Counted from the first letter of the stretch, positions 1-48,314 are shown. The stretch: 64,000 nucleotides of DNA from a bacterium (GCA_030629005.1 DAOVPV010000006.1:3472-67471), one strand, 5' to 3'. Notes: generated from the sequence alone by a model not told the origin. Numbers and translations: made by a program.

Positions 1-1325
1 CATCAAAAAAGTTTTCGTTTTTGGCATTAAATGACGGGTCCTGCTTTAATAGTTTGCAAATCGTTATAGATACAAACATGCCAAAATATGAAGAAACAAT
101 ATCACTACTTTCTACAGGAGCTTCTGTAAAAATTACAGGCAAAATTGTCCAAAGCCCAGGAAAAGAACAATCTATAGAACTTATGGCTCAAGATATAACA
201 GTTATTGGTAAATGTGATCCGGAAACATACCCTTTACAAAAAAAACGACATTCTTTTGAATTCTTAAGAGAAATTGCACACCTAAGACCAAGGACTAATA
301 CTTTTGGAGCAATTGCAAGAGTAAGAAATGCTTTGTCATTTGCAACTCACCAATTCTTCCAAGAAAAAGGTTTTTTATATATTCACACTCCGATTATAAC
401 TGCCGCAGATTGTGAAGGTGCGGGTGAAATGTTTAAAGTAACAACTTTAGATTTAGAAAACCCACCTAAAACTGATAAAAACAATTCGGAAGAAACATTT
501 AATGTTACGGATTATTCAAAAGATTTTTTCGAAAAACCTACATACCTAACAGTATCTGGCCAACTTGAAGGTGAAGCTTACGCATGCGCACTTTCTAATA
601 TTTATACATTTGGACCAACATTTAGAGCTGAAAATTCTAACACTTCCAGACATTTAGCAGAATTCTGGATGATAGAGCCTGAAATGGCTTTTGCAGATCT
701 AAACGATAACATGGATTATGCAGAAGAATATATAAAATATTGTTTAAAATATCTCTTAGAAAAATGTCCTCAAGATATGAAATTTTTTAACAGATATATT
801 AAACCAGGACTTATCGATAAATTAAACAACGTAATAAATTCACCATTTGAAAGACTAGAGTATACAAAGGCAATTGAAATTCTTAAAAACTCCGGCAAAA
901 AATTTGAATATAAAATTAAATGGGGATCTGATTTACAATCCGAGCACGAAAGATACCTTACCGAAGAACATTTTAAAAAACCTGTAATTTTATATAACTA
1001 TCCAAAAGAAATAAAAGCATTTTACATGCGTCAAAATGATGATGGCAAAACAGTTGCCGCAATGGACGTGCTTGTAGAAGGTGTCGGAGAAATAATCGGT
1101 GGTTCTCAAAGGGAAGAACGTCTAAATGTTCTAGAAGAAAAAATGGACCAAACTAGATTAGATAAAGAAAATTACTGGTGGTACCTAGAGCTTAGAAAAT
1201 ATGGTTCAGTTCCTCACGCAGGATTTGGGCTAGGCTTTGAACGACTTATACAATTTGCTACAGGTATGGAAAATATTCGAGATGTTATTCCATTTCCAAG
1301 ATATCCAGGACATTGTGATTTTTAA
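1..1325 (+). CDS. asnS: asparaginyl-tRNA synthetase (5' end cut off by window edge)
   Basis: The reading frame is open to position 1. Class II aaRS motifs are present: [38 protein letters not shown]. It is colinear with E. coli AsnS as recalled. Confidence 0.95.
486..506 (+). repeat. 21-nt hairpin-core repeat, copy 1 (TCGGAAGAAACATTTAATGTT)
   Basis: Exact match to the consensus. It is in frame in asnS and read as SEETFNV. It is identical over 25 nt to the copy at 58518. Confidence 0.9.
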
Positions 1326-3449: not shown

Positions 3450-3590
3450 ATACAAACTTTACATATAAAAAAAACAAACATAGGGGCCGAATGGCCCTTG
3501 CTCATTTAATGCTATAATCTATAATAATTAACGAATACTCCTCGCAACAAGCTAATGAAATATCATTCAAGAATTTGATTTTTTATTATT

Positions 3591-3667
3591 ACTGGACCCT
3601 GAAACAAGTTCAGGGTGACACACGCAGAATGCAAATTTGTCATCCTAAACTCGTTTCAGGATCCAGT
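3591..3667. repeat. nested palindromic MITE-like element, copy 1
   Basis: The arms ACTGGACCCTGAAACAAGTTCAGGGTGACA and TGTCATCCTAAACTCGTTTCAGGATCCAGT are 26/30 complementary. Each arm holds its own small hairpin (CTGAA-ACAAG-TTCAG). The element is intergenic, upstream of prfB. Confidence 0.8.
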
Positions 3668-3722: not shown

Positions 3723-4805
3723 ATGTTAATTGATGAATTAAGAGAAAAATTAAAAAATATAGAACCTGCAGTTATTGCCATTAAAGACTTTTGGCAAAAC
3801 TCCAACAATCAAGAAAAATTTCTAGAGCTTGATAAACAAATAAATCAAGAAAATTTCTGGCAAAACCCAGATAGAACAAATATTCTAAAAAAATATCTGT
3901 TTATTAAAAACCTAAAAGAAAATTTTGATGATGTAACTAATTCTTTTGAGGAAAACAAAGAACTAATAGAATTATTTGAAACAAACGAAAAAGAACTTAA
4001 AAAACTTATTGGCGAAATAAATTCATTGGTGAAAAAAACAAAAAAATTTAAACTCGAACTTTTGTTAAACAAACCAGAAGATTTATCCAATTGCTTTTTA
4101 AGTATAAACTCAGGAGCTGGTGGCACAGAGTCTCAAGACTGGGCAAATATGCTTTTACGCATGTATACCCGTTTTTGTGAACGAGAAAATTTTTCTATAG
4201 AAATGATAGATTGCCAGTCCGGGGAAGAAGCCGGCATAAAATCTGCTTCTTTATATATTAAAGGTAAAAATGCTTTCGGGTTTTTAAAAAGTGAAAATGG
4301 TATTCACAGATTAGTGCGTATTTCTCCATTTGATGCAAATAAAAGAAGACATACCTCATTTGCAGCAGTAAGCATCACACCTGAAGTGGAAGAAAAATCT
4401 GTAGAAATAAACGATAACGATTTAAAAATAGATACATTCAAAGCCGGTGGCGCTGGCGGACAACACGTAAACAAAACCGAATCTGCCATAAGAATTACAC
4501 ACATTCCATCAAAAATAGTTGTACAATGTCAAAGCCAACGCTCGCAAGGACAAAATAAACAAACTGCAATGAAAATGCTTGCTGCAAAACTTGTCGCAAA
4601 ACAAAAACAAGAAAAACTCGAAAAAGAACAATCTGTAGTAAAGAAAAAAATTGAGTGGGGTTCACAAATTAGATCTTACGTTCTACATCCATATAAAATG
4701 GTAAAAGACTTAAGAACAAATTATGAAAATCCTCAACCAGAATTAGTGCTAGACGGTAACCTAATGCCAATGATAGAAAAATATTTACTCGAATTTAACT
4801 CATAA
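3723..4805 (+). CDS. prfB: peptide chain release factor 2 (single uninterrupted ORF)
   Basis: The RF2-specific SPF tripeptide (RISPFDANKRRHTSF) and the GGQ motif (GGAGGQHVNKTES) are present. The length of 360 aa is close to E. coli RF2. Confidence 0.95.
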   Translation: MLIDELREKLKNIEPAVIAIKDFWQNSNNQEKFLELDKQINQENFWQNPDRTNILKKYLFIKNLKENFDDVTNSFEENKELIELFETNEKELKKLIGEINSLVKKTKKFKLELLLNKPEDLSNCFLSINSGAGGTESQDWANMLLRMYTRFCERENFSIEMIDCQSGEEAGIKSASLYIKGKNAFGFLKSENGIHRLVRISPFDANKRRHTSFAAVSITPEVEEKSVEINDNDLKIDTFKAGGAGGQHVNKTESAIRITHIPSKIVVQCQSQRSQGQNKQTAMKMLAAKLVAKQKQEKLEKEQSVVKKKIEWGSQIRSYVLHPYKMVKDLRTNYENPQPELVLDGNLMPMIEKYLLEFNS

Positions 4806-4809
4806 AAAA

Positions 4810-4830
4810 TTGGAAAAAACATTTAATGTT
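4810..4830 (+). repeat. 21-nt hairpin-core repeat, copy 2 (intergenic)
   Basis: TTGGAAAAAACATTTAATGTT has 2 mismatches to the consensus. It fills the prfB-tilS spacer, and its ATG is the first in-frame start of the tilS ORF. Confidence 0.8.
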
Positions 4831-5836
4831 CATGATTTTTGATAAATTAGAAAAAGAATTAAAAAATATTATCAACTTAAGCGACAAACCCAAAATTATC
4901 CTGGGCCTTTCTGGAGGGCCAGACTCTGTATTCTTATTTTATTTTTTAAAAAAGCTAGCTCAAGAAAATAAAATACAGTTAATTTGCGCACATCTAGACC
5001 ATGAATGGCGGAAAGAATCTAAATCTGATGTAGAGTTTTGTAAAAATCTATGTAAACAACATAAAATTAAATTTATTTCTAATACAACAAATGAATTAAA
5101 TCTTAATTTAAAATTTAATGGCTCCCAAGAAGAAATCGGCAGAAAATTAAGACGTCATTTCTTTAATAAAGTTTTAAAAGAAAATAACGCAAATTATGTT
5201 GCATTAGCTCATCACCTGCAAGACCAGCAAGAAACATTCTTTTGGAGAATTATTAGAGGGACAACATTAAACGGCTTAATTGGAATGAAAAAACTACAAC
5301 CTCCCTACATTCGGTCTTTATTAGATATAGAAAAAAAAGAAATCTTAAATTATTTAAATAAAAATAATATTACGTATTTAATAGACCAAACGAACGACTC
5401 TGATAAATATTTACGCAATAGGATTAGAAAATATGTAATCCCAAGCTTAGAAAAAGTCGACCCTAGATTTTCTAAGAAATTTGCTACAACTTTAAATTAT
5501 CTACAAGAAGAAGAAGCTTTTATTAAAAAAATCACAGAAAATAGTTTTAATAATCTTTTTAAAAAATCTGAAGAAACATTTAATGTTATAGAACAAAAGA
5601 ATTGTTCAGAAAATAAGTTTATCGGAAATCTCAAAGAATTTTTATCTTTAGATACCGTGTTACAAAAAAGAATTATTATTTATTGGTTGACAAAAGAAAA
5701 GGTAAAATTCAGCCCCAGCAATAATTTCTTACTAGAAATTTTACGATTTCTAAAAAATGAAAATGGCGGAGTTCACAAAATAGACAATAACTTCTCTATT
5801 TATAAAAAACAGAATAAATTCAAAATCACAGCTTAA
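4826..5836 (+). CDS. tilS: tRNA(Ile)-lysidine synthase
   Basis: The PP-loop SGGPDS and HLDHEWR are present, and the tilS-like C-terminal region follows. The start is ambiguous between ATG 4826, which lies inside the repeat, and ATG 4832. Confidence 0.9.
   Translation: MFMIFDKLEKELKNIINLSDKPKIILGLSGGPDSVFLFYFLKKLAQENKIQLICAHLDHEWRKESKSDVEFCKNLCKQHKIKFISNTTNELNLNLKFNGSQEEIGRKLRRHFFNKVLKENNANYVALAHHLQDQQETFFWRIIRGTTLNGLIGMKKLQPPYIRSLLDIEKKEILNYLNKNNITYLIDQTNDSDKYLRNRIRKYVIPSLEKVDPRFSKKFATTLNYLQEEEAFIKKITENSFNNLFKKSEETFNVIEQKNCSENKFIGNLKEFLSLDTVLQKRIIIYWLTKEKVKFSPSNNFLLEILRFLKNENGGVHKIDNNFSIYKKQNKFKITA
5567..5587 (+). repeat. 21-nt hairpin-core repeat, copy 3
   Basis: TCTGAAGAAACATTTAATGTT has 1 mismatch. 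It is in frame in tilS and read as SEETFNV. Confidence 0.9.
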
Positions 5837-7087: not shown

Positions 7088-8518
7088 GTGGCAGAAGTAG
7101 TAATTGTTGGTGCAGGACTAACAGGATTAACTGCAGCATATCATCTAGAAAAAAATAATTTTTACGATTTTAAGATTTTCGAAAAAGAAAATACACCTGG
7201 TGGACTTCTACGCTCTTTTACCAAAGATGGATTTACTTTTGATTTTACAGGCCACCTTTTACACATAAGCAACCCAGATTTTTATAATTTTTTAGACGAA
7301 ACTGCTGGCATCCAAAATTTTCTAGTTCAAAATAGAAGTTCTTTTATACATACAAATAATACATTCACAGACTATCCTTTTCAGACAAACCTTTATGGCC
7401 TTCCTGAAAAAATAATTTATGACGTAATCCTTGGATTTATAAATAGACAAAAAAATACTAGAAATCCAAAAAACTTTCATGAATGGGTACTAAAACATTT
7501 TGGTTCCGGTATCGGCAAACACTTTTTATTTCCATATAATCAAAAACTTTTAGCCTACAATATAAAACAAATAGAACACTCATGGACTGGAAGATTTGTA
7601 CCTTCTACAAACTTAAAAAATATAATTTATGGAGCATTAAATAAAAAAAATGCAAAAACAAACCTAGGTTATAATAGCAAATTTTATTATCCAAAATTCG
7701 GCGGCATACAGTATTTAATAGATAAATTACAAAATAAAATAAAAGCTAAAATAAATACCAACTTTAAACTATTCAAAATCGATCTAAAAAATAAACTTGT
7801 TCTTTTTGAAAATGGTCATATAGAAAAATTTAAACATCTTATTTCAACAATGCCACTAAATAATTTACTTAAATGCTCAATAGATAGGACAAATACAAAT
7901 TTACAAAAACAACACACAAATCTTTTATGTAATTCTGTAATAAACTTTAACTTGGGCTTTAATGCCAAAAATTTCGATACAAATTTTAAAAACAAACACT
8001 GGATATATTTTCCAGAAAAAAAATATCTTTTTTATAGACTAGGATTTTGGAATAACATATGCAAAAACTTAGCGCCAAACAATACATATTCAACATATGG
8101 TGAAGTTTCTTTTATGCCACAAACATCGAAAGAAACATTTAATGTTAAAGATCATAAACAAATAGAAAAATTAACAGAAAACTCAATTAATCAAACTATC
8201 AAATATTTAAATATTAATAAAAAAGACATATTAATAAAAAAAACATTAATACTTAAACATGCATATGTAATTTACAATACTTGGAGAAAAAAATATTTAA
8301 ATACTATTCACAAAGAATTAAAAATGGAAGGAATAAATTCTATCGGAAGATTTGGAGAATGGAAATATTCTAGCATGCAAGAAGCATTTATAGATGGAAA
8401 AAATACAGCTATTAAAATATTACATAATATGAAACAAGTAAGTCCCAAAAATTTTAGCCCCAAAAAAATAGAAGGCCTTATTAAACATGAACAAGCTACA
8501 AAACGTTTACAACAATAA
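7088..8518 (+). CDS. FAD-dependent oxidoreductase (amine oxidase / UDP-galactopyranose mutase-like fold)
   Basis: The ORF has a GTG start. A Rossmann dinucleotide motif VVIVGAGLTGLTAAYHL is followed by GGLLRSF..GFTFDFTGH. It lies next to a sugar-nucleotide epimerase gene. Confidence 0.7.
   Translation: MAEVVIVGAGLTGLTAAYHLEKNNFYDFKIFEKENTPGGLLRSFTKDGFTFDFTGHLLHISNPDFYNFLDETAGIQNFLVQNRSSFIHTNNTFTDYPFQTNLYGLPEKIIYDVILGFINRQKNTRNPKNFHEWVLKHFGSGIGKHFLFPYNQKLLAYNIKQIEHSWTGRFVPSTNLKNIIYGALNKKNAKTNLGYNSKFYYPKFGGIQYLIDKLQNKIKAKINTNFKLFKIDLKNKLVLFENGHIEKFKHLISTMPLNNLLKCSIDRTNTNLQKQHTNLLCNSVINFNLGFNAKNFDTNFKNKHWIYFPEKKYLFYRLGFWNNICKNLAPNNTYSTYGEVSFMPQTSKETFNVKDHKQIEKLTENSINQTIKYLNINKKDILIKKTLILKHAYVIYNTWRKKYLNTIHKELKMEGINSIGRFGEWKYSSMQEAFIDGKNTAIKILHNMKQVSPKNFSPKKIEGLIKHEQATKRLQQ
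8126..8146 (+). repeat. 21-nt hairpin-core repeat, copy 4
   Basis: TCGAAAGAAACATTTAATGTT has 1 mismatch. It is in frame and read as SKETFNV. Confidence 0.9.
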
Positions 8519-9398
8519 AAATGTGTTGGTAACTGGAGGTGCAGGCTTTATTGGTTCAAACATAGTAAAAGAGTTAGTAAAACTTAACACAAATGTCACA
8601 GTGTTAGATAATTTTTCAACCGGAAGCCTGAATAATCTCAAAGACGTGATTAATAGAATAAATATCATATATGCAGATGTAACAAACATTTTTTCATGCA
8701 AAAAAGCAGTCGCAAAAAAAGATATTGTTTTTCACCTAGCAGCATTAACTTCAGTAAACCAGTCAATCCAAAATCCTAACTTGTACTATAAAGTCAATAC
8801 TCAAGGTACTAAAAATTTACTGGAAGCATGTCGGCTTTGTAAGAACAAGATAAAATTTATATTTTCATCTTCAGCTTCTGTTTATGGAACAAAAAATACA
8901 CTTTGCTCAGAAGATGACACTCCAAATCCACAATCACCGTATGCTAAAAGCAAACTGGATAGTGAATTTTTATGCAAAAAATATAATCAAAAATATAATC
9001 TTAATACTGGAATTTTACGGTATTTTAACGTGTATGGAAAAAATCAAAATCCAAACGGAGAATATGCTGCGGTTGTTGCAAAATTTAAATATAATTTAAT
9101 TAATAATTTACCAATTACAATATTCGGTGATGGTAAACAAACTAGAGATTTCATACATGTAGATGATGTTGCCATGGCAAATATCTTACTAGCAACAAAA
9201 GAAGAAATGAACGGTGAAATCATAAATGTTGCATCTGGACAAAGTATAAATTTACTAAAATTAATTTCAAAATTAGAAACAGAACTAAATAAAAAAACTA
9301 CAAAAATAGAATTTCAACCAGCAAAAGTTGGTGATATAAAAAATTCAAAAGCAAATTGCCAAAAATATAAAAATTTAAGGTTTGATTTTCCCTTTTAA
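8487..9398 (+). CDS. NAD-dependent epimerase/dehydratase (extended SDR)
   Basis: VLVTGGAGFIGSN and the YAKSK catalytic motif are present. It overlaps the upstream gene by 32 nt. GTG 8523 is an alternative start. Confidence 0.85.
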   Translation: MNKLQNVYNNKNVLVTGGAGFIGSNIVKELVKLNTNVTVLDNFSTGSLNNLKDVINRINIIYADVTNIFSCKKAVAKKDIVFHLAALTSVNQSIQNPNLYYKVNTQGTKNLLEACRLCKNKIKFIFSSSASVYGTKNTLCSEDDTPNPQSPYAKSKLDSEFLCKKYNQKYNLNTGILRYFNVYGKNQNPNGEYAAVVAKFKYNLINNLPITIFGDGKQTRDFIHVDDVAMANILLATKEEMNGEIINVASGQSINLLKLISKLETELNKKTTKIEFQPAKVGDIKNSKANCQKYKNLRFDFPF

Positions 9399-9470
9399 AC
9401 CGTTATAATCTTAGTAAATCTTAGTCTGCGGGACTAAAGAAATTTATATGAATATTCAGAGGATAAAAAC

Positions 9471-10601
9471 ATGACAAAAAAAGATTATTACGAGATTTTG
9501 GGCGTATCAAAAGGTGCATCTAAAGACGAAATTAAAAAATCATACAGAAAAATAGCTTTAAAATACCATCCTGACAAAAACCCAGACAATAAGGAAGCAG
9601 AAAATAAATTTAAAGAAGCATCAGAAGCCTACGAAGTTTTATCCAACGAACAAAAAAGAACAAAATACGATCAATTCGGCCACTCTGGCATGCAAGGCGG
9701 CTCAGACTTCCATGAATATGCAGATTTTGGAGATATTTTTTCAAATTTTGGAGATATCTTCTCGGATCTTTTTGGAGCAGGACAAGCCAGACAAACAAGA
9801 AGTAAATCCGGCATAACACCTCAAAGGGGACATGATCTTTCTTTTAACGTAGAAATTTCATTAAAAGAATCTTATCTCGGTGTAAAAAAAGGTATTTATA
9901 TATCTCACTACGTAAGTTGTACTACATGCAATAATTCTGGCTGTACGGCGGGTACAAAACCCGAAAGGTGTATATCATGCCACGGAACCGGTGCAGTAAA
10001 TTACAGACAAGGTTTCTTTTCATTTTCTCAACCATGTAACAAGTGTGGGGGCCAAGGCTTTATAATAAAGACTCCATGTCCAAAATGTAAGGGGCAATCT
10101 CGAACACGAACAAGAGAGACTATAACCGTAAATATACCCGCTGGAGTTTATAACAACGCAGAACTTAGAGTAAAATCAAAAGGTGATGCAGGCGTTTATG
10201 GCGGAAGCTCTGGAGATCTTTACATAAACTTAAGCGTAAAACCTAATAAAATATTTTGGAGAAAAAATAACAATCTTGTAACAAATCTAAATTTAACATA
10301 TCCACAACTAGTTCTTGGTTGCCAAGTAGATATCGAAAATATCGATAGCCAAACTCATACAATAAAAATTCATAAGGGTTGCCAAATAGATGAAGATGTC
10401 GTTCTTCCAGGAAAAGGCTTTGCAATACCAGGTAGCTTAGCTCGAGGAAATTTAATTGTTATTACAAAATGCCATATACCAAAAAAATTACCATCAAAAG
10501 CAAAAGAACTTTTATTAGAGTATGCAGACAAAATAGGTAACAATGTCGAAAGCAACTCTGAATCGGGAATATCAGGTTTTTTTAAAAAATTTTTAGGATA
10601 A
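9471..10601 (+). CDS. dnaJ: molecular chaperone DnaJ
   Basis: A J domain with HPD is followed by a G/F region and four CxxCxGxG zinc-finger repeats. No dnaK or grpE is adjacent. Confidence 0.95.
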
Positions 10602-10702
10602 ATTAAATTTATATTATTTTTTTTGTTTTAAAAAATAATATATTTGTTAAAATCTTTTAACATGTAAAGTTTTTAGTTGTGGTTATTTTGAAAGGAATTT
10701 GT

Positions 10703-11437
10703 ATGAAGAAGTTTTTAAAACTTATTGCATTTTGTTTATTATTTTCTGTAAGTGCAAACGCTGTAAGCAAAATTACATTAGAAAAACTCGAAAATATTGT
10801 ACGAAAACTTGAAGATTTGAACAATAATCCTGAAAATCCCGAAAATATAAATAATAAAATAAAAAATATCGAAACAGAATTTGAACTACTACAAAAAGAA
10901 GATCCAAATTTAGAAAACAATGAACTTTCTGAAAAAACAAAAGTTTTAATTGAAACCGTAAAATCTTTTAATGCAGCAGAAAAAAAAGCTTTCTTAAAAA
11001 AATATAAAAAAGAAATTGCTGTTTTAACTGCATTAGTCGCTGCAAGTGCAGCTGGTGGATTTGCTTTAAAGAAAGCATCAGCTAAGCAAGCTGCAAAAGA
11101 ATTAGATAGAATAGAAAACAAAGAAGAATCTAATCGATTTATGAAATGGGCTTCAAAACATGCTAAATTTCTAAAAAAAGAAAAGAAAGAAGAAAAAGAA
11201 AAAGTTGAAGAGATCGTAGAAAATTCAGAAAGCAATATCGAAGAGACGCCAATAAGAATAAGCCGATTGGATCGATTTTGGAATTTTGTTACTCGAGCTA
11301 AAATAGCAAATTCAGAAAGCGATATCGAAGAAGCACCAATAAAAACAGGCCTATTGGATCGATTTTGGAATTTTGTTTCTCGAGCTAAATCTGAAACATC
11401 TGATTCTAGTGAATTATCTGATTCTTTCGACAATTAA
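10703..11437 (+). CDS. secreted coiled-coil protein with 29-aa tandem repeat
   Basis: The signal peptide MKKFLKLIAFCLLFSVSANA begins at an internal ATG of ORF 10679-11437. An 87-bp tandem duplication at 11222-11395 encodes two SES(N/D)IEE.PI....LDRFWNFV.RAK units. The mirror ORF on the - strand was rejected. Confidence 0.7.
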   Translation: MKKFLKLIAFCLLFSVSANAVSKITLEKLENIVRKLEDLNNNPENPENINNKIKNIETEFELLQKEDPNLENNELSEKTKVLIETVKSFNAAEKKAFLKKYKKEIAVLTALVAASAAGGFALKKASAKQAAKELDRIENKEESNRFMKWASKHAKFLKKEKKEEKEKVEEIVENSESNIEETPIRISRLDRFWNFVTRAKIANSESDIEEAPIKTGLLDRFWNFVSRAKSETSDSSELSDSFDN

Positions 11438-11506: not shown

Positions 11507-12769
11507 CTATACAACCAAAACTTTTAAAAATTCTTCTAAAGAAGTATCTCCTGAATAAACTTTCTCTAAAGCATCAGCCTCTATAAATTTCATATTTCTT
11601 TGTAATAGCTTTTTTTTAATTTGTGCAAAATCAGATTTTTTAGAAATTAAATCTCGAAGTTCATCATCTACTTTTAACAATTCGAAAACACCTAAGCGCC
11701 CCTTATAACCAAGATTAAAACAGTGATTACAACCACACGGTCTATTAATTTCACTCAAATTAATATTTTCTAAATTAATATTTTTATTTTTAATATATTC
11801 CATTTCTTGATCTGTAATAGCATCTTGAGATTTACAATTATTACAAAGTTTACGAACCAATCTTTGAGATAAAACACCAGACAATGCCGCATTAATTAAA
11901 TAAGGGTCAACGCCCATATTAACTAATCTTGTAATAGAACTAACTGTATCATTGGTGTGTAAAGTACTAAAAACCAAATGCCCCGTTAACGCTGCTTCTA
12001 TAGCAATTTTGGCTGTCTCCTTATCTCGTATTTCTCCAACCATTATAATATCCGGATCTTGTCGTAAAATAGAACGTAAACCTTTTGGAAAAGTAAAACC
12101 GGACTTTTCATTTATCTGACTTTGAACAACACCATCGATGTTATACTCAACAGGATCTTCCATTGTAACAATATTTTTCTGGCCATTATTAAGATATGAC
12201 AATATAGAATACAAAGTCGTCGTTTTACCAGAGCCAGTTGGCCCTGTTATTAAAAAAAATCCATGAGGCCGCCCGACTAAATCTTGCAAACAAGAAACCA
12301 TTTTTGAATTCATACCAAGATTATCTAGGCTAATTTTATTTTTAGAAGCATCAAGTATGCGTATAACCATCTTTTCGCCATAAATAGTTGGAAATGTAGA
12401 AATACGCATATCAACCAAATTATGATCCGACGGTCCCCTAAAAACATTTGCCAAAATTTTGCCATCTTGAGGCATACGCTTTTCAGCAATATCTAAACCT
12501 GACAAGATTTTCAATCTCGAAATAATAGACATACCTATATCAGAATCTATAGAATCTTGATCATACAAAACACCATCAATCCTATAACGAACTCTTAGAT
12601 TTTCTTGATTCTGTTCTAAATGAAGATCTGATGCATTATAATCTACACCAATAAATAAAAGGGAATCCACCAAATCTATTACTTGATCATTGGGAATTCC
12701 CTTTTTTAATTTTTCTTCTTTAGAAAAAAGACTATAAACAAACTCTCTCTCTGCCTTTTTTTCCGCCAC
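11507..12769 (-). CDS. GspE/PilB-family secretion or type IV pilus ATPase
   Basis: Walker A GPTGSGKTTT, MVGEIRD, GHLVFSTLHTND and a tetracysteine motif (CNNC...CNHC) are present. It is short (420 aa) and lacks the long N-terminal domain. Confidence 0.9.
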   Translation of the reverse strand: MAEKKAEREFVYSLFSKEEKLKKGIPNDQVIDLVDSLLFIGVDYNASDLHLEQNQENLRVRYRIDGVLYDQDSIDSDIGMSIISRLKILSGLDIAEKRMPQDGKILANVFRGPSDHNLVDMRISTFPTIYGEKMVIRILDASKNKISLDNLGMNSKMVSCLQDLVGRPHGFFLITGPTGSGKTTTLYSILSYLNNGQKNIVTMEDPVEYNIDGVVQSQINEKSGFTFPKGLRSILRQDPDIIMVGEIRDKETAKIAIEAALTGHLVFSTLHTNDTVSSITRLVNMGVDPYLINAALSGVLSQRLVRKLCNNCKSQDAITDQEMEYIKNKNINLENINLSEINRPCGCNHCFNLGYKGRLGVFELLKVDDELRDLISKKSDFAQIKKKLLQRNMKFIEADALEKVYSGDTSLEEFLKVLVV

Positions 12770-12776
12770 TATTAAT

Positions 12777-13184
12777 TTATCCTAATTTATATCCAATTAA
12801 AAAACCAACAGTACAAGAAACAAAAGTCACCAAATTTTGCTTAATCCACTCAAAAGCAGTATTCAAAAGCATTCCAAAATCTGATGTTGGATCAAGGCCT
12901 AAAAGAAGGTTTAAAGCAGTCCAATCTATAGCTAAAACATTTTTATACTCAAAAACCAAAACTATTACCATTGCAAATAAAATAGTAAAAAAAACAAATT
13001 TAAAATATTTTTTAAATAAAAATCCAATAGCAAAGCCTAAACCAAAATATACTGCAGCCTGAACAGCCTGAGAAGACGATCCTCCAATTTGTTCCGACCA
13101 TTTTTTTATATCAACAGCCTCCCAAATAGACTTAATCCAATTTATAAAACTTTCGAATCTTCCCGGAGCAATGGTATCTTGCAT
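12777..13184 (-). CDS. small integral membrane protein, FUN14-like
   Basis: 135 aa with 3-4 hydrophobic helices. GLGFAIGFLFKK and the C-terminal GFLIGYKLG resemble the FUN14 family pattern. Confidence 0.55.
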   Translation of the reverse strand: MQDTIAPGRFESFINWIKSIWEAVDIKKWSEQIGGSSSQAVQAAVYFGLGFAIGFLFKKYFKFVFFTILFAMVIVLVFEYKNVLAIDWTALNLLLGLDPTSDFGMLLNTAFEWIKQNLVTFVSCTVGFLIGYKLG

Positions 13185-14024: not shown

Positions 14025-14128
14025 ATATAATAACCGTTATAATTATGTACAATTTTTAAATATTAGCAACATTTTTTTGTTTTATTTTTTAGAAAAAAAA
14101 TTTTAGTGAATATTTTAAATTGAAGAAA

Positions 14129-14193
14129 TGGCCGTGCCATACGACTTGTCCTACGAAGCCACGTGGGGCGTAGTAGGAAGCCTTGGCGAAGTA
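14129..14193 (-). repeat. GC-rich tRNA-trailer repeat module R1 plus CCA-adjacent box
   Basis: The sequence is TGGCCGTGCCATACGACTTGTCCTACGAAGCCACGTGGGGCGTAGTAGGAAGCCTTGGCGAAGTA. It has an internal imperfect hairpin around the palindrome CCACGTGG. It abuts the tRNA-Cys 3' end. Confidence 0.75.
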
Positions 14194-18429: not shown

Positions 18430-20328
18430 TTAAAAATTTAATTCTTCCCAAAGAGCTAAATTTTTATTTAGCTCTTTTTCAAGTTTATTTAAAATATATA
18501 AAGTTTGATCGTAATCCTTTGAACCATACTCTAAGCTTTCAAACTTTTTAGTTAAAAGCTCTAACTCAACTTCTTGTTTTGATATTTTAGTCTCTAAGCG
18601 CCTAATAAGTTTTCTTTTTTCATAATCGTTTTCTTTGAGTTTTGTTTTATGACAAATATCCTTAGCTTTAGATTCTATAATTTCTGCATCTTGCAAAACT
18701 TCTTTCTGCGCATTTTTTTGAACCAAAAAAGAATCGTAATTACCTTTATACTTATAAGCTGAATCTTCTTTTAGTTCTATAATAGAAGTTGCAAGATTAT
18801 TTAAAAAATCTCTATCGTGAGAAACAAATAAAACAGTTCCATCATATTTTTTAAGAACATTTAACAAAACATCTTTAGATTCTATATCAAGGTGATTTGT
18901 AGGCTCATCTAATAATAAAAAATTTGCATTTTGTAGCAAAACTTTTATCATTGCAACACGATTTTTTTCACCACCACTCAAAACACTTACTCTTTTGTCA
19001 ACATCATCACCACTAAAAAGAAATGCTCCGAGAAGCCCACGAACTCTCTGTCTTTGCTCCGATGTTTTGCAAGCAGATTCTACCTCTTTAATTAAATCAT
19101 TTTTTAAATTTAAAGATTTATTTTGATCTTGTTCAAAAAAAGCAGTTTTTACATTATGACCAAGCTCAAAAGAACCTGCATTACTTTTCAATTTATTCAT
19201 AATAATGTTGAGCACCGTTGATTTACCCTGGCCATTGGGTGCTACAATAGCAACCATTTCACCACGCTCAATTTCAAACGAAATATCTTTAAATATTTTT
19301 TTATCAGCAAAACTTTTTGATAATTTTTTCACAGTTAAAACAATTTTTCCGGTTCGCACTACTTTAGGTAAGCTAAAACGCATTATCTGTGATTTAGGTT
19401 CTAGCTTTACCATCTCTATTTTGTCTAAAGCCTTTAGCCTACTTTGAACCATTTTCGCTTTTGTAGCGGACGCCCTAAATCTATCGATTAACTCTCGTTC
19501 TTTTTTTAAAAACTTTTGTTGTTCCACAAATTTCTTTTCCAAAAGTTCTTGATTATGTTTTTTCTGTTCTAGATATTTAGAATAATTACCTGTAAAAATA
19601 TTTATATGACCTAAGCTTACCTCATAAATTTGATTACAAAGTTTATCTAAAAAATATCTATCGTGGCAAACCAACATAAAACCAAAGCCGGAAGAAGCAT
19701 TTAATGTTTGGGATCTTTTTAAAAAATCCAAAAACCAATCTTTTGCAACCAAATCCAAATGGTTTGTAGGTTCATCAAATAAATAAAAGTCAGCTTTTTG
19801 TAATAAAAGTTTTGCCAAAACCAACCGCATTTTCCAACCAACAGAAAGAGTTTGTACAGGATCTGTAAATTGTTGTTCGCGAAACCCAAGCCCCAATAAA
19901 ATATTTTTTGCTTCTGTTATTTTTTTTTCAAATTCTAATTCTTGCAAATTGATTTGTAACAAAGAATATCTCTCTAAATCTTCTACACTGCTATCATCTA
20001 ATTTTTTTTCTAAAGAATTATACTCTTCTACTAAATCACCTAAATTACCTAACATTATTTTATAGATATTAAGAGCTTCTCTAAAAATAGTCTTCTCTGA
20101 TAGAAGGATTACGTTTTGTGGTAAATATGCAACCTTTTTGTCGCCCTGGATATTAATTTGACCAGAGTCATACTCCTGTTGCCCTGCAATAATTTTTAGC
20201 AATGTCGTTTTTCCAGAGCCATTTCTACCAACAAGACCAATTCTTTGATTTGAATTAACTGTAAAAGAAATATTATCAAAAATGGCACATTGCCCAAAAT
20301 TTAAGCTTAAATTTTTTACTATAAACAT
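18430..20328 (-). CDS. ABC-F family ATPase (Uup/YheS/EttA-like)
   Basis: Two ABC cassettes are present: GRNGSGKTT with LSVGWKMR, and APNGQGKST with LSGGEKNR. There are no TM domains, and the C-terminus is a coiled coil. Confidence 0.9.
   Translation of the reverse strand: MFIVKNLSLNFGQCAIFDNISFTVNSNQRIGLVGRNGSGKTTLLKIIAGQQEYDSGQINIQGDKKVAYLPQNVILLSEKTIFREALNIYKIMLGNLGDLVEEYNSLEKKLDDSSVEDLERYSLLQINLQELEFEKKITEAKNILLGLGFREQQFTDPVQTLSVGWKMRLVLAKLLLQKADFYLFDEPTNHLDLVAKDWFLDFLKRSQTLNASSGFGFMLVCHDRYFLDKLCNQIYEVSLGHINIFTGNYSKYLEQKKHNQELLEKKFVEQQKFLKKERELIDRFRASATKAKMVQSRLKALDKIEMVKLEPKSQIMRFSLPKVVRTGKIVLTVKKLSKSFADKKIFKDISFEIERGEMVAIVAPNGQGKSTVLNIIMNKLKSNAGSFELGHNVKTAFFEQDQNKSLNLKNDLIKEVESACKTSEQRQRVRGLLGAFLFSGDDVDKRVSVLSGGEKNRVAMIKVLLQNANFLLLDEPTNHLDIESKDVLLNVLKKYDGTVLFVSHDRDFLNNLATSIIELKEDSAYKYKGNYDSFLVQKNAQKEVLQDAEIIESKAKDICHKTKLKENDYEKRKLIRRLETKISKQEVELELLTKKFESLEYGSKDYDQTLYILNKLEKELNKNLALWEELNF
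19688..19708 (+). repeat. 21-nt hairpin-core repeat, copy 5
   Basis: CCGGAAGAAGCATTTAATGTT has 2 mismatches. It lies in + polarity inside a - strand gene, where it is read as TLNASSG. Confidence 0.85.
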
Positions 20329-21825: not shown

Positions 21826-22596
21826 TTACTTCGATTTTTCAGCCAAATCTAAATAAAGGTCTAACGATTTATCTACTACATTAAAAATAATTTGATAATA
21901 ATCTGAATAATCACCAGACATTTCTGCTTTAGAAATAGACCTTATATAAGCAAGCTTATCCTCAACTTTTATTATTGCAGGAGGAAATCCAGACTGCATT
22001 AAAATCAAATCCATAAGTAGTCTTGCGCTTCGACCATTTCCATCAACAAAAGGGTGGATCATAACCAATTTTATGTGAGCATCAGCTGCAATTTTAACAG
22101 GATGTTCTTTTGTACAATGCAACCATTTAATAAAATCATCCATCAATTCTGGTACTTTTATAGGCTCTGGTAGCACAGAATCGGAACCCGCTATTTTTAC
22201 TGCTATTTTTCGCAATTTACCTGCATTTTTATCATCTATTTGTTTTAAAATTAAATAGTGAAAATTTAAAAAATCTTTTAAATTTATATCTTGAATTTTT
22301 TTACCTACAAATTTTTTTATATAATCAATAGCAAAAGCTAGATTTTTAGCTTCCAAATGCTCACGAATACTCTTGCCTCCAATAGTAATTCCTTTTTCAA
22401 CAACAAGTGTAGTTTCTTGTTTCGTTAAAGTATTACCCTCAATGGCGTTCGAATTATAAGTTGATTCTATCTTAAACCAATCATCCAAATTCTTTACAAG
22501 CTCTTTTGATAAAGGCCTAAGACTATCTAATTTATTTTTTTTATTATCAATAATTTCTAATAGTTTACCCATGGTATTACCTCGTTTATTCGTCAC
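21826..22596 (-). CDS. Fic-domain protein (AMPylase family)
   Basis: The Fic motif HPFVDGNGRSARLL is present. An N-terminal SNAIEG matches the intramolecular inhibitory motif (S/T)xxxE(G/N). Confidence 0.9.
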   Translation of the reverse strand: MTNKRGNTMGKLLEIIDNKKNKLDSLRPLSKELVKNLDDWFKIESTYNSNAIEGNTLTKQETTLVVEKGITIGGKSIREHLEAKNLAFAIDYIKKFVGKKIQDINLKDFLNFHYLILKQIDDKNAGKLRKIAVKIAGSDSVLPEPIKVPELMDDFIKWLHCTKEHPVKIAADAHIKLVMIHPFVDGNGRSARLLMDLILMQSGFPPAIIKVEDKLAYIRSISKAEMSGDYSDYYQIIFNVVDKSLDLYLDLAEKSK

Positions 22597-22619
22597 AACT
22601 TACATAAATTTATTTAATA

Positions 22620-22699
22620 ACTGGATACTGAAACAAGTTCAGCATGACAATTGAAATACCAAGTCCTCTTGTCATTCTGAACTTGTTTCAGAATCTAGT
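22620..22699. repeat. nested palindromic MITE-like element, copy 2
   Basis: The arms are AACTGGATACTGAAACAAGTTCAGCATGACA and TGTCATTCTGAACTTGTTTCAGAATCTAGT. It is intergenic between the NurA-like and Fic genes. Confidence 0.8.
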
Positions 22700-22721: not shown

Positions 22722-23909
22722 TTAAACGCCAATACCACGTTTTTTAATACTCTTTTGCGAAAAAAATAATCTTTTATTTTGCTCAAAAGCTTCCCGCTGT
22801 AATAAACTATAAAAAAATTCACGGTCTGGACCCTTTACAACTGCAGCTTCATGCGCATAAGCCAAAGTTACAGGATAACCTAAACCCTTTTTTATTTGGT
22901 CTAAAGCAACCGCGGACAAAAAATCTAACATATCTTTATCTTGCGCAATATAGGCGAAAGTTTCTATACGCACAACTTCTACATCTGCATTTAAATAAAA
23001 AAAACATGGCTTTAGATGTTCTGGATAACTCTTTGTAATTTTTGAATTACTAAAAAAAATATTACTACGTTCATTTATATTTAAATAAGTTTTTGCTATT
23101 CGTGTATCTATTAAATTATCTACAGCCTTACATGGAAAATCACTATAAACTCTGTGACAAGAAATACATTCTGCAAAATCAAACCGACATAAACCTAGCT
23201 TTATTAAATTTACAAGCTCTTTGCTTTTAGGAAAACTTATAAAACCAGCTATTATTTTTTTATTCTCATAAAATTTTTGCAAAATATTTAAGTATGAATT
23301 CAAGAACAAATCTTTAATTTCTTCTGGTTTAGATTCTAAAAACCAAAAAATTACCGTACCATCTACAAACGCAATATCTATATTTTCTTCTAAAGTTAAT
23401 TTTAGCAAATTTAATAATTCAAGTTCCTCTCTCTTTAAATCTACAATATCATTAGAAAAATTTATCTTATTATTTTGATCTAAAAAATCTTGAATTATAA
23501 AAAGAGTTGGCTCTGAATTTATTTTTACAGAACTATTTTCGTCGGAAGAAACATTTAATCTTGAAGAAACATTTAATATTTTTGAATATTTTATCTGACA
23601 ACTACCAATATTTATTAAAAAACAACCTGAATTAGAAATATTTCGGTCTGGATATATCTGAGAACCATCTACAGATAGTATAGAATAATCATTTTTTTGA
23701 ATTGGAATTTTAAATTTATCAGACAAATTACCAGCCCACGATGGAACCAAAAAACTTGCGTTAGAATTTTCTACTTTAGCTTTAAATTTAGAATCTACAG
23801 AAATACTTTGCCATTTTTCCTGAGCTATACTTGACTGCTCTGTAAAATTATTAAAAAGCTTATCTGCATTTTTTTTTAGTTGTAAAAAAAGACTATTTTT
23901 ATTTAACAT
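22722..23909 (-). CDS. NurA-domain nuclease-like protein
   Basis: ILSVDGSQIYPD, FVDGTVIFW and the C-terminal GYPVTLAYAHEAAVV resemble the NurA nuclease family pattern from memory. No HerA-like partner is adjacent. Confidence 0.45.
   Translation of the reverse strand: MLNKNSLFLQLKKNADKLFNNFTEQSSIAQEKWQSISVDSKFKAKVENSNASFLVPSWAGNLSDKFKIPIQKNDYSILSVDGSQIYPDRNISNSGCFLINIGSCQIKYSKILNVSSRLNVSSDENSSVKINSEPTLFIIQDFLDQNNKINFSNDIVDLKREELELLNLLKLTLEENIDIAFVDGTVIFWFLESKPEEIKDLFLNSYLNILQKFYENKKIIAGFISFPKSKELVNLIKLGLCRFDFAECISCHRVYSDFPCKAVDNLIDTRIAKTYLNINERSNIFFSNSKITKSYPEHLKPCFFYLNADVEVVRIETFAYIAQDKDMLDFLSAVALDQIKKGLGYPVTLAYAHEAAVVKGPDREFFYSLLQREAFEQNKRLFFSQKSIKKRGIGV
23542..23580 (+). repeat. 21-nt hairpin-core repeat, copies 7 and 8 (tandem, 18-nt period)
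   Basis: The sequence is TCGGAAGAAACATTTAATCTT followed by GAAGAAACATTTAATATT. In the - strand gene it is read as ILNVSS-RLNVSS. Confidence 0.85.
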
Positions 23910-24047: not shown

Positions 24048-24857
24048 TTAAAAATCTTTACCAAAAGATAAATCTGCTAATTCTTGATAAAGCTCTTCAT
24101 CTTCTTTTAATTTCTCAGGCAATTCCATCTTTTCCTCTTTTTCTACATCATCAGATTCTTCATCATCTGGCAAATCCAAAATCATTTTTTCATCATCAAT
24201 AATCTTCTCTTCATCTTTTGGCTCTTCTGCAATAACTTCTTCTATTATTTCAACTTCAGGCTCTTCAACATCTTCTGTTATTTCAACTTCAGGTTCTTCA
24301 ATCTCTTGCTCTTCAATCTCTTGCTCTTCAAACTCCTGCTCTTCAACCTCTTGCTCTTCAAACTCCTGAGCTACAGGCTCAACAACAATCTTTTCTTCTA
24401 TTATTTCAACTTCAGGTTCTTCAACTTTTTCTATAACTTCTTCGACAACCGGCTCTGCAACCTCTTGCTCTTCAACCCCTTGCTCTTCAACCGTTGATTC
24501 AAAAACACTTGGCTCTTCAACATCTTCTGTTACAACTTCAGCTACGGGCTCAACAACAATCTTTTCTTCTATTATTTCAACTTCAGGTTCTTCAACATCT
24601 TCTGTTACAACTTCAGCAACAGGCTCTACAACCTCTTGCTCTTCAACCTCAGGTTCTTCAACTTTTTCTATAACCTCTGTTACAACCTCAGCAACAGGCT
24701 CAGCTTTAATCTCTTCTTCAACAGCCGGCTCAACTACCGACGCCGTTAATTCCGAATCCGAAAATTCGGAACCTAAATCAAAACCGGCTTCTGAATTTAT
24801 AAAAGCTATAAATAATATTTGCACTATTATTAATAATAGATAAATTCTTTTATTCAT
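24048..24857 (-). CDS. secreted, extremely acidic E/V-rich repeat protein
   Basis: A signal peptide MNKRIYLLLIIVQILFIAFINSEAG is followed by repeated EPEVEIIEEKIVVEPVAEVVTEDVEEP units. Identical 50-nt blocks occur at 24376-24425 and 24547-24596, spaced 171 nt (57 codons) apart. Confidence 0.75.
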   Translation of the reverse strand: MNKRIYLLLIIVQILFIAFINSEAGFDLGSEFSDSELTASVVEPAVEEEIKAEPVAEVVTEVIEKVEEPEVEEQEVVEPVAEVVTEDVEEPEVEIIEEKIVVEPVAEVVTEDVEEPSVFESTVEEQGVEEQEVAEPVVEEVIEKVEEPEVEIIEEKIVVEPVAQEFEEQEVEEQEFEEQEIEEQEIEEPEVEITEDVEEPEVEIIEEVIAEEPKDEEKIIDDEKMILDLPDDEESDDVEKEEKMELPEKLKEDEELYQELADLSFGKDF

Positions 24858-28158: not shown

Positions 28159-28183
28159 AGCAAGAATCCTTATTTTTTTATAA

Positions 28184-28294
28184 GGACTAGATCCCGCATC
28201 AAGTGCGGGATGACAACAAGAGCCTCGCTTAAATCTTATTCAAAGACCTTTTATTAACTTCGAACAATAATAGATCCAATCCAGAATCTAGTCC
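28184..28294. repeat. nested palindromic MITE-like element, copy 3 (degenerate right arm)
   Basis: The left arm is GGACTAGATCCCGCATCAAGTGCGGGATGACA, with the hairpin CCCGCA-TCAAG-TGCGGG. The termini GGACTAGAT / ATCTAGTCC form a 9-bp inverted repeat. It is intergenic between sufU and pepA. Confidence 0.7.
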
Positions 28295-29934: not shown

Positions 29935-30600
29935 CTAAAACATTGCACAATTACTACATGGGTTATCCCAAAAACTTACTTCTTTTTTATCTAATTCTAA
30001 AGAACTAAATTCTTTTAATTTCATAAGATATATAATAAACCAAATTAAACTTCTACAATCAAATAATTTTGCATAAAATAAAACATCGTTCTTAGCTTCA
30101 TCCTTGATGCTTGTCAACCAATTTGCTAGTTGAACATAACGGGTACCTAATTCATCTTTATCAAATATTGCATCTAAATTTAATTCGGCACCTCTTTCTA
30201 AAAGAAAAACCAAAACATCAAAATTAAAGTTTTTATTCATAATACAATGAAATAATGGAGTATGCCCAAAAATATTTGTTAAATTTATTTTAGCACCATT
30301 TTCAAATAAAAAAGAAACCAACCCATAAGAAGAGCTGGGAGATCTTAAAGCAGAAAAAATAGGCGTTTCCCCCCAGTCATCTATAGAGTTTAAATTTTGT
30401 AAAAATAAATCTTTTTGACAAGATAAACTTTTGGGTTCATCTAGATGGTAAATATCGTTTATAAAATCAACGGCTGGAAGAGATAAACAAAAGTAATGTA
30501 ATTGATTAGGCTTACCATCTAAACTTTCTTGCATAGCAATAAGATTAGAATTTAAAAATAGATTAATAATTAAAAAAAACAAATTAAAAAATAAACGCAT
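29935..30600 (-). CDS. secreted ankyrin-repeat protein
   Basis: An N-terminal signal-like segment is followed by ANK repeats (GETPIFSALRS...LFENGAKINLTNIFGHTPLFHCI...LLERGAELNL). Confidence 0.8.
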   Translation of the reverse strand: MRLFFNLFFLIINLFLNSNLIAMQESLDGKPNQLHYFCLSLPAVDFINDIYHLDEPKSLSCQKDLFLQNLNSIDDWGETPIFSALRSPSSSYGLVSFLFENGAKINLTNIFGHTPLFHCIMNKNFNFDVLVFLLERGAELNLDAIFDKDELGTRYVQLANWLTSIKDEAKNDVLFYAKLFDCRSLIWFIIYLMKLKEFSSLELDKKEVSFWDNPCSNCAMF

Positions 30601-47363: not shown

Positions 47364-48314
47364 TTAAGGTTGAAAAACTTCTTTTTGAGCAAACAAATCA
47401 GATCTCTCCAAAATTTTATCTAATAGATCTAAAACCTCTTGAATTGTTGGACGATATTCAGGCCAATGCCCCCAACATTTGCTTATAATATTATTAATTG
47501 AAGCAAACTCAGGGTCAAGATAAGGACGAGCACCACGCAATATAGAATTCGTAAAAACATCCGGATCATCAATAAAATTTGCAGTAGTTTCATCATAAAA
47601 AATATAATGAATCAAATGACCTAATGCATAAATATCATCTGAAAAAGCCACTGTATATTCTGCCTTTTCCTGCCAAGCAATTATTTTTTCGGGTGGAAAA
47701 AAAACAAGAGTACCACAAATTCCTTCAGACCGCTCTCTAATATCACATGACATAGATAAATCAATTATTTTAGGAATATTACCATCAAACATAACAATAT
47801 TTTCGGGCTTCAAATCGCAATGAACAATATTGTTTTCATGCAAATATTTAACACCTAAACAAATTTTCTTTGTCATATCTAAGCGTTCTTTAAAGGACAA
47901 TATACCTTTATTTTGCGCTAAAAAATCAACTAAATCACATAAACCTTGAGAAGTTACTATTACAAAACTTTTAGGATCATATCCAATTAAATCAACAATA
48001 AATTCACATTCTGAAAACCGATGTAAAATATCTACTTCTTGAAAGAAAAATTGTGAATTTCTTTTTACTATTTCCTTCGATTTAGAAGGAATGCTCCTAT
48101 AAACCAAAAAAACTACTGGCTGCCCCTCCAATAAGCCCTTATAAACAATCTTTTCACTCCCACCAATAAAACGTTCATATTCCTTTGCAATTGTAGCTCT
48201 ATCTAAAACTGTAATAGAAAGCCCAGCATTCCTTTTTGTGGGCTGCATAGAAAAAAGATTTATAATAAAAAATAAAAATATTAAAAATATTTTAAAATTT
48301 TTAAATTTCAACAA
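47364..48314 (-). CDS. eukaryotic-like Ser/Thr protein kinase with N-terminal signal/anchor, WNK-like lysine placement
   Basis: The catalytic loop HCDLKPEN is intact, with DLS in place of DFG and PPE in place of APE. The G-loop reads IGGSEKIVYKG. The position expected for the beta3 VAIK lysine reads VVFL. Confidence 0.85.
   Translation of the reverse strand: MLKFKNFKIFLIFLFFIINLFSMQPTKRNAGLSITVLDRATIAKEYERFIGGSEKIVYKGLLEGQPVVFLVYRSIPSKSKEIVKRNSQFFFQEVDILHRFSECEFIVDLIGYDPKSFVIVTSQGLCDLVDFLAQNKGILSFKERLDMTKKICLGVKYLHENNIVHCDLKPENIVMFDGNIPKIIDLSMSCDIRERSEGICGTLVFFPPEKIIAWQEKAEYTVAFSDDIYALGHLIHYIFYDETTANFIDDPDVFTNSILRGARPYLDPEFASINNIISKCWGHWPEYRPTIQEVLDLLDKILERSDLFAQKEVFQP

Follow-up and report, generated by a model that had tools for sequence, protein, structure and literature searches.

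A 21-nucleotide unit inserted into asnS and other genes of a Candidatus Dependentiae chromosome

We analyzed 64,000 nucleotides of a bacterial genome (GCA_030629005.1 DAOVPV010000006.1:3472-67471; hereafter, the window), a stretch of the chromosome of an uncultured member of Candidatus Dependentiae (TM6). At positions 486-506, between two codons of asnS, the gene for asparaginyl-tRNA synthetase (AsnRS), lies a perfect copy of a 21-nt unit, TCGGAAGAAACATTTAATGTT, that recurs elsewhere in the window. The unit was inserted whole, as a block (21 nt, or a 21 + 18 nt tandem in the NurA gene), into unrelated housekeeping genes and at one gene junction. It always occupies the same chromosomal strand and, where the empty site is visible, the junction lies immediately 5' of a native NNNGAW; an amine-oxidase-like gene and the ABC-F site of one relative (locus L095) are exceptional in this respect. 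We consider it likely that 486-506 is one copy of a young, lineage-specific, ultra-short dispersed insertion element.

The insertion in asnS

The gene, the copy of the unit within it, and the short motif that follows are located as follows.

3-1325, + strand: asnS, asparaginyl-tRNA synthetase, class IIb; codons 1-28 precede the window
486-506, + strand: copy 1 of the 21-nt unit, TCGGAAGAAACATTTAATGTT, 0 mismatches, between asnS codons, read SEETFNV (S190-V196 of the full-length protein, P0001)
507-512, + strand: NNNGAW after copy 1, ACG GAT, in which GAT is the native Asp codon

Within the window, the asnS open reading frame (ORF) spans 21-1325 on the + strand. Its product carries the tRNA-synt_2 catalytic domain (PF00152, E = 1e-67) and an OB-fold anticodon-binding domain (PF01336), shares 59% identity with Escherichia coli AsnS, and has 6pqh as its best PDB match (E = 4.5e-165); domain content and closeness to known structures both place it among the AsnRSs. 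The full-length protein, P0001 (468 aa), is recorded from one 96-kb metagenome scaffold, and its nearest named relatives are Candidatus Dependentiae and Babeliales bacteria.

A reading made from the sequence alone had counted 20 residues between the conserved LDLEN and DFF blocks of this protein and had given 13 for E. coli AsnS. The translation gives 20, and the E. coli K-12 gene (NC_000913.3, b0930), which we retrieved and aligned, gives 13. As that reading also noted, the excess of 7 aa, or 21 nt, equals the length of the repeat: removing exactly 21 nt from asnS leaves KTDKNN/TDYSKDFF (the slash marks the junction), which has the length of the orthologues. To place this difference in a wider setting, we aligned the 120 best AsnRS homologues and counted the residues between the invariant GAGE and LTVSGQ blocks. 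The segment has 42 residues in 111 of the 120 sequences, 41 in seven, 48 in one (P0050), and 49 in the window protein only, so that the short loop is found in 118 of the 119 other homologues. The loop had been described as variable, which is correct for its sequence; its length is conserved. The insert of six residues in P0050 (KTEKAGTTEKTA) occupies another position; it appears to have arisen by local duplication and has no relation to the unit.

The closest relative of the window protein, P0002 from ‘candidate division TM6 bacterium GW2011_GWF2_28_16’ (81% identity), has the short loop, reading KTDKNN, a seven-residue gap in the alignment, and then VDYTKDFF. At the DNA level, the locus of this relative (L001) is syntenic with the window across asnS, a hypothetical gene, prfB, tilS, a second hypothetical gene, the amine-oxidase-like gene, an epimerase gene, and dnaJ. 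There, GAT AAA AAT AAT runs directly into GTC GAT TAT, whereas in the window GAT AAA AAC AAT and ACG GAT TAT are separated by the unit, in codons TCG GAA GAA ACA TTT AAT GTT. The sequence-only reading had favored insertion of the unit over convergent evolution of a motif and had named such an alignment as the check; relatives without the nucleotide motif have the 13-residue loop and not the long one, which supports insertion.

Placing the loop on known structures by alignment gives a concordant picture, with a seven-residue gap in 6pqh at the insert. The alignment to the second-ranked PDB entry for an AsnRS, 5zg8, which we take to be the Thermus thermophilus enzyme, skips from query residue 180 to 206 at one chain position (181-205 unmatched), and the Pyrococcus horikoshii-type entry 1x54 behaves much the same. 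Judged from these alignments, Thermus- and archaeal-type AsnRSs lack the whole 25-residue loop, and because they do so, a permissive surface position for the asnS insert is supported. In an AlphaFold2 model built with 59 homologues (mean pLDDT 76), residues 175-207 are predicted to be coil with two isolated bridge residues; the block has a pLDDT of 65-70, falling below 50 at residues 188-190. In asnS, the unit interrupts, at a codon boundary, a surface loop of 13 residues and conserved length; it is translated there as SEETFNV, a peptide that AsnRS probably carries as a tolerated passenger.

Copies, target and strand of the unit

Altogether, the window holds eight units: seven sites with no more than three mismatches to the consensus, TCGGAAGAAACATTTAATGTT, and one 18-nt second unit at 23563-23580 (also delimited as 23560-23580), directly after the copy that begins at 23542. 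Only 0.02 sites are expected at this threshold, and none of 100 shuffles attained seven. In addition to the copy in asnS, which starts at 486, the units are:

4810-4830, + strand: copy 2, 2 mismatches, intergenic, in the prfB-tilS spacer
5567-5587 (insert to 5605), + strand: copy 3, 1 mismatch, in tilS, read SEETFNV
8126-8146, + strand: copy 4, 1 mismatch, in the amine-oxidase-like gene (7088-8518, + strand), read SKETFNV
19688-19708, + strand: copy 5, 2 mismatches, antisense in an ABC-F ATPase gene (18430-20328, - strand), read (Q)TLNASS(G)
23542-23580, + strand: copies 6-7, a 21 + 18 nt tandem, antisense in the NurA gene (22722-23909, - strand), read ILNVSSRLNVSS
58518-58538, + strand: copy 8, 0 mismatches, in a PilN-like gene (58200-59159, + strand), read SEETFNV

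The last 13 nt of the unit, AACATTTAATGTT, form a perfect 6-1-6 palindrome (AACATT-T-AATGTT). A profile made from the copies finds each of them with an E-value of at most 8e-5, and the next match has an E-value of at least 0.47. The copies differ among themselves by point changes, and their mismatch spectrum is bimodal: the seven sites have zero to two mismatches, and at three to six mismatches nothing rises above background on either strand except the tandem second unit. Because copies with three to six mismatches are missing, we regard the unit as young, and it is restricted to this lineage. Spacing averages about one copy per 8 kb and is uneven: four copies fall within the first 8 kb, and the stretch from 24 to 58 kb has none. 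Coding sequence accounts for 87% of the window and contains six of the seven insertion events.

For the other genes, we compared orthologues at loci of relatives (L001/L002, L095, L119, and L121). The ABC-F ATPase (context K RSQTLNASS GFGF) is exactly seven residues longer than each of 119 homologues (the segment has 65 residues here and 58 in the others). The amine-oxidase-like protein is longer by exactly seven residues than its counterparts in L119 and L121, and by nine than that in L001. NurA has 13 more residues than in L095 and 14 more than in L119 and L121, where the additional 39 nt are the 21 + 18 tandem. TilS likewise exceeds the single available relative by 13 residues, or 39 nt, which comprise the unit and 18 further nucleotides (5588-5605), and at the prfB-tilS junction the window has about 30 nt beyond the 2 nt found in the relative. 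When exactly 21 nt (39 nt in the NurA gene and tilS) are excised, all ORFs stay open and the lengths of the orthologues are matched. By these alignments, four genes carry clean insertions: asnS, the amine-oxidase-like gene, and the ABC-F gene, with 21 nt each, and the NurA gene, with 39 nt.

Two observations adjoin these comparisons. The intergenic copy (region 4810-4835) supplies a Shine-Dalgarno-like GGA followed by an ATG (4826) in frame with tilS, with a second possible start at ATG 4832. Locus L095, which is without the 21-nt unit, has in-frame intragenic repeats of its own (9461-9574, 11678-11725, 13103-13128, and 9125-9147); a GC-rich palindrome, TCATCCCGGGCAAGGACCCGGGATCC, is present three times, including within its ABC-F and NurA genes, and its NurA gene also has a 114-nt insert. 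Invasion of genes by in-frame repeats may be common in this clade.

At all seven sites, the unit is followed by NNNGAW (GAW frequency on the + strand, 0.031; P about 3e-11), in which three variable nucleotides separate GAW from the junction. In asnS, the relative's empty site is GTC GAT, and the Asp that this GAT encodes (D198) is close to invariant, at 90% or more, across an alignment of 59 AsnRS sequences. At its empty ABC-F site, L119 has CCAAAA/TTAGAA, and the empty NurA sites begin with TTAGAA in L119 and with TTTGAA in L121. A preference for NNNGAW is supported at three of the four resolved sites (asnS, ABC-F, and NurA), where GAW, as the empty sites indicate, belongs to the target and not to the insert. 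The first six bases of the unit, TCGGAA, conform to NNNGAW themselves, and the 5' flank of the copies is A-rich, nothing more.

All seven independent events place the unit on the + strand (two-sided p = 0.016), irrespective of the direction of the gene. GC skew is negative across the window, ranging from about 0 to -0.07 in stretches with + strand genes and from -0.13 to -0.32 in those with - strand genes; coding sequence amounts to about 37 kb on the - strand and 18 kb on the + strand. The + strand is C-rich beyond the effect of coding strand and is probably the lagging strand. The window has no origin or terminus, and all seven events are on its C-rich strand. In either orientation, TAA occurs in one phase out of three, leaving two that are free of stops whatever the gene. 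Selection therefore cannot account for the single orientation, which suggests a process or function specific to one strand. Every sense copy is in phase 0, the result to be expected if the target carries GAT or GAA as a codon in frame.

Beyond the window, the same scaffold carries no copies over a further 6 kb upstream and 10 kb downstream, and the profile finds no matches in about 85 kb of syntenic DNA from the relatives L001/L002, L095, L119, and L121. In 185,579 species genomes, the 18-nt core of the unit gives at least 84 matches, all single and unrelated. The exact 21-mer has no match in metagenome contigs, the pattern of core plus NNNGA has 22 single matches there, and a 19-mer has three single matches in a viral scan; no locus has more than one profile match in the metagenome and viral scans, or among the genome matches listed. 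Where such background matches are in frame, they encode EETFNV in diverse, unrelated proteins. The sole Dependentiae match among those listed (L080, 20/21 nt) was rejected as an insertion, since the window orthologue differs by merely two residues there.

Much of the background is accounted for by genes of DpnII-family (GATC) restriction endonucleases, which natively encode NLEETFNV[ML][DE] (11 by the strict pattern and at least one more, among the 109 matches listed). The loci concerned (L106, L108, L115, L100, L109, L113, L114, L078, L027, L009, L099, and L023) encode ARRNLEETFNV[ML][DE]N with the same 18 nt and NNNGAW, and belong to AT-rich organisms. We judged a link between the unit and DpnII to be coincidence, a conserved hexapeptide written in AT-rich codons.

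Several other features of the window were recorded. Rfam finds only four tRNAs in it. Two 65-nt segments (2912-2976 and 14120-14184; CCATACGAC.TGTCCTACGAAGCCACGT.GGGCGTAGTAGGAAGCCTT), which are 86% identical and have no Rfam match, each adjoin a tRNA pair (Ala/Ile and Leu/Cys, - strand). A second repeat family, intergenic and GC-richer with the core CCCTGAAACAAGTTCAGGG, occurs at 3580-3620, at 22609-22699 (as an inverted pair), and at 28175-28215; it forms a stable hairpin and looks like a repetitive extragenic palindromic (REP)-like element or a terminator. An 87-nt tandem duplication with 88% identity (11217-11389) lies inside two overlapping ORFs (10679-11437, + strand; 10657-11433, - strand), neither of which has a Pfam match. 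A 269-aa ORF on the - strand (24048-24857), also without a Pfam match, consists mostly of 15-nt and 171-nt periodic repeats that encode acidic peptides rich in E, Q, and V. The gene prfB (3723-4805) is one unbroken 360-aa ORF with PCRF and RF-1 domains, and because it aligns with the relative from Met1, the programmed +1 frameshift site appears not to be used here. Genes for Fic/DOC, ankyrin-repeat, and eukaryotic-type Ser/Thr kinase proteins (21826-22596, 29935-30600, and 47364-48314) are typical host-interaction genes of intracellular Dependentiae.

A possible mechanism and its rivals

If the unit is an insertion element, the copies that survive would be those inserted in multiples of 3 nt, free of stops, and placed in permissive loops; freedom from stops is a constraint because, whichever way the unit lies, TAA appears in one phase out of three. 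The least certain part of this scheme is the agent. An activity encoded elsewhere in the genome may act in trans to copy and insert the unit, perhaps working on one DNA strand at the replication fork, either by single-strand transposition (of the HUH/Y1 kind) or by target-primed, templated synthesis. Such an activity, confined to one strand at the fork, would account for both the single orientation and the short NNNGAW target. More speculatively, and as a tentative proposal, the unit may belong to an undescribed class of ultra-short (21-nt) mobile insertion, free of hairpins, inverted ends, and duplications, which a templated or single-strand mechanism, itself perhaps new, writes beside NNNGAW on one replication strand, stamping SEETFNV (TLNVSS in the other orientation) into essential proteins of this Dependentiae bacterium.

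A number of observations weigh against an insertion element. The unit, which starts with TCGGAAG and finishes with AATGTT, lacks terminal inverted repeats, the copies have no target-site duplication (the flanking triplets do not agree), and single-stranded DNA folding gives no stable hairpin (-2 kcal/mol, z = -0.65; the second-family hairpin at 3585-3625, for comparison, has -7.5 kcal/mol and z = -3.6). Folding ruled out a hairpin, REP, or terminator identity for the unit, and a sigma-70 promoter was rejected by eye, since the TCGGAA and TTTAAT hexamers are merely 6 nt apart. In the window, by a Pfam survey of its ORFs, and among the called genes of its flanks, together about 80 kb of genome, there is no transposase, reverse transcriptase, or HUH gene and no Y1_Tnp match, nor did a longer master copy come to light. 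Seven events in this same stretch of one genome are the basis of the orientation rule. The empty amine-oxidase site and the empty ABC-F site of L095 are without GAW, and the copy in the PilN-like gene is not clearly an insertion. Furthermore, a deleterious selfish element is expected to gather in spacers, and six of the seven events are in coding sequence; the lack of decayed copies is equally compatible with purifying selection on a functional DNA site.

These last two points bear on the main rival, in which the unit is a functional, polar chromosomal DNA signal. A dimeric protein would bind the palindrome AACATTTAATGTT and its asymmetric 5' extension, with a role in replication or segregation like that of KOPS, Chi, or Ter, or as an uptake signal; the near-identity of the copies would reflect selection, with the insertions into proteins as its cost. 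Very high identity without a decayed tail and no excess in spacers fit such a signal, as does the arrangement of all copies on one strand, co-oriented with GC skew at about one per 8 kb. A perfect palindrome that does not fold resembles a duplex binding site more than a hairpin, and type IV pilus and T2SSE genes lie within the window. However, known polar motifs are 5-8 nt long and come about through point substitutions, whereas here 21-nt blocks have entered conserved proteins, and four syntenic relatives manage without the unit. Substitutions in the palindrome arms are tolerated without compensation (in the copies at 19688 and 23542, and in the tandem second unit), and the clustering of copies described above is uneven for a signal of this kind. 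We regard a functional signal as unlikely, although it is the explanation that competes most directly with insertion of an element.

It is less probable still, and in our view doubtful, that the copies are short patches templated by gene conversion, or by template switching in repair or replication, from one native source, possibly the PilN-like gene. Microhomology would guide such patches through the A-rich 5' side and GAW on the 3' side, the unit itself beginning with NNNGAA. The 5' end of the unit, TCGGAA, does fit the NNNGAW present after every copy, and downstream flanks share 10.5 identities per 24 nt, vs 7.0 for random pairs; this similarity past GAW is weak, however, for AT-rich DNA, and because NNN varies among copies, no single donor was copied through to GAW. 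The PilN-like copy is a perfect consensus in a segment of the usual family length (most of the distant homologues are equal in length), and the family shows a weakly similar native pattern, LKKAYNM compared with SEETFNV. The closest homologue (39% identity) is nevertheless six residues shorter here, so that the PilN-like copy may be an insertion too. We know of no precedent for template switching that returns to a single 21-nt donor at each of seven loci.

The two remaining explanations are both highly improbable. In one, the peptide SEETFNVxD/E was selected, having evolved or been recruited independently, and the nucleotide identity is a by-product of AT-rich codon usage. Four copies are indeed in frame as S[EK]ETFNV followed by x-D/E, and in AT-rich organisms EETFNV is written with this same 18-mer in numerous unrelated proteins, the DpnII family included. 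This account is already contradicted by the copies that are not read as this peptide: two insertion events, comprising three units (TLNASS and ILNVSSRLNVSS), are antisense to their host genes and one is intergenic, and all keep the same nucleotides and NNNGAW. Because they do so, the insertion is a DNA-level event, and peptide convergence is excluded. In addition, three of the four sense copies encode Ser with TCG, which makes up 5.8% of Ser codons in the window; the probability that codon usage would spell SEETFNV exactly so is 0.007 per copy, and the length differences are exact 21-nt blocks.

In the other, the unit is an assembly or library artefact, or the long loop is ancestral and was lost elsewhere. 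The genome is known from a single sample, every motif-bearing protein cluster has one member, and the first 8 nt of the unit, TCGGAAGA, match part of what we take to be the Illumina adapter sequence, AGATCGGAAGAGC. The likeness to the adapter is limited to these 8 of 21 nt, however, and both the ENA scaffold and the Logan contigs, two distinct assemblies from this sample, contain the copies, which differ by point changes and within genes come in multiples of 3 nt that leave all ORFs open, so that an artefact is very unlikely. An ancestral loop would require loss in 118 of 119 lineages, in E. coli, and in 6pqh, which is far less parsimonious than one gain.

Significance and comparison with known elements

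Should the strand and target rules of the inserted unit hold genome-wide, it would be the smallest unit known to us that spreads by insertion in a bacterial genome. An insertion mechanism that requires merely about 21 nt of element sequence would be relevant to the biology of mobile DNA, and might constitute a natural writer of short tags. The copies are also a natural experiment, with seven residues added to AsnRS, ABC-F, and the amine-oxidase-like protein, a 21 + 18 tandem to NurA, and 13 residues to TilS, in which the insert positions mark sites that tolerate insertion. For annotation, they illustrate that lineage-specific loop insertions in conserved enzymes can derive from dispersed nucleotide repeats and not from local slippage.

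In the literature, we found no described repeat of Dependentiae, no 21-nt in-frame element, and no mobile or repeated element this small with matching strand and target-site rules. Lineage-specific insertions in aminoacyl-tRNA synthetases offer one comparison: as in these, the AsnRS insert is a short surface-loop peptide in a class IIb catalytic domain that leaves the invariant motifs untouched, but unlike the usual case it can be traced to a dispersed nucleotide unit common to unrelated genes.

Among repeats that spread between genes, REPs are 20-40 nt long and form stable extragenic hairpins, often in inverted pairs, that are mobilized by RAYT (Y1/HUH) transposases. The unit is similarly short, and the window does contain a true REP-like hairpin at 3585-3625. 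In contrast to REPs and REPINs, the unit has no hairpin, six of its seven insertion events are intragenic, and its copies are all direct, on one strand. Insertion sequences of the IS200/IS605 group have an orientation fixed with respect to the replication fork and a short specific target, a tetra- or pentanucleotide immediately 5' of the insertion point, and they require a subterminal hairpin at each end. In its short target and in the single orientation of its seven events, the unit is reminiscent of this group; it lacks the hairpins, however, its GAW lies 3 nt off the junction, and its other flank is merely A-rich.

Over-represented oligonucleotides such as uptake signal sequences (USS/DUS), KOPS, Chi, and Ter are largely intragenic, in tolerated frames, and the polar motifs have a replication-linked strand bias. 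USS/DUS and the polar motifs are 5-12 nt long (Ter is about 23 nt, with few copies) and arise by substitution, and USS/DUS occupy both strands at about one per kb. The unit differs from USS/DUS as a block insertion present in eight copies in 64 kb, on one strand; its strand skew agrees with that of KOPS and Chi, but its 21-nt length and insertional origin do not.

A close parallel is with the Rickettsia palindromic elements (RPEs). These elements are about 100-150 bp long, palindromic, and divided into several families, and miniature inverted-repeat transposable element (MITE)-like repeats have 50-400 bp, a palindrome or terminal inverted repeats, and a target duplication. RPEs are selfish repeats that sit in frame within the housekeeping genes of an obligately intracellular bacterium (PMC10969869). 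Like them and other intragenic MITE-like repeats, the unit is dispersed, lies in frame in conserved genes, adds a peptide at permissive surface positions, and is missing from orthologues (PMC10969869); in-frame insertions with orthologues that lack the repeat are found in asnS, the ABC-F, amine-oxidase-like, and NurA genes, and, against one relative, in tilS. Unlike RPEs, and without the structural features of MITE-like repeats, the unit has only 21 nt, does not fold, and has neither inverted ends nor a target duplication, and it combines a single strand orientation with an NNNGAW target. The unit resembles RPEs in its effect, yet falls outside the structural definitions of RPEs, MITEs, REPs, USS/DUS, and KOPS/Chi.

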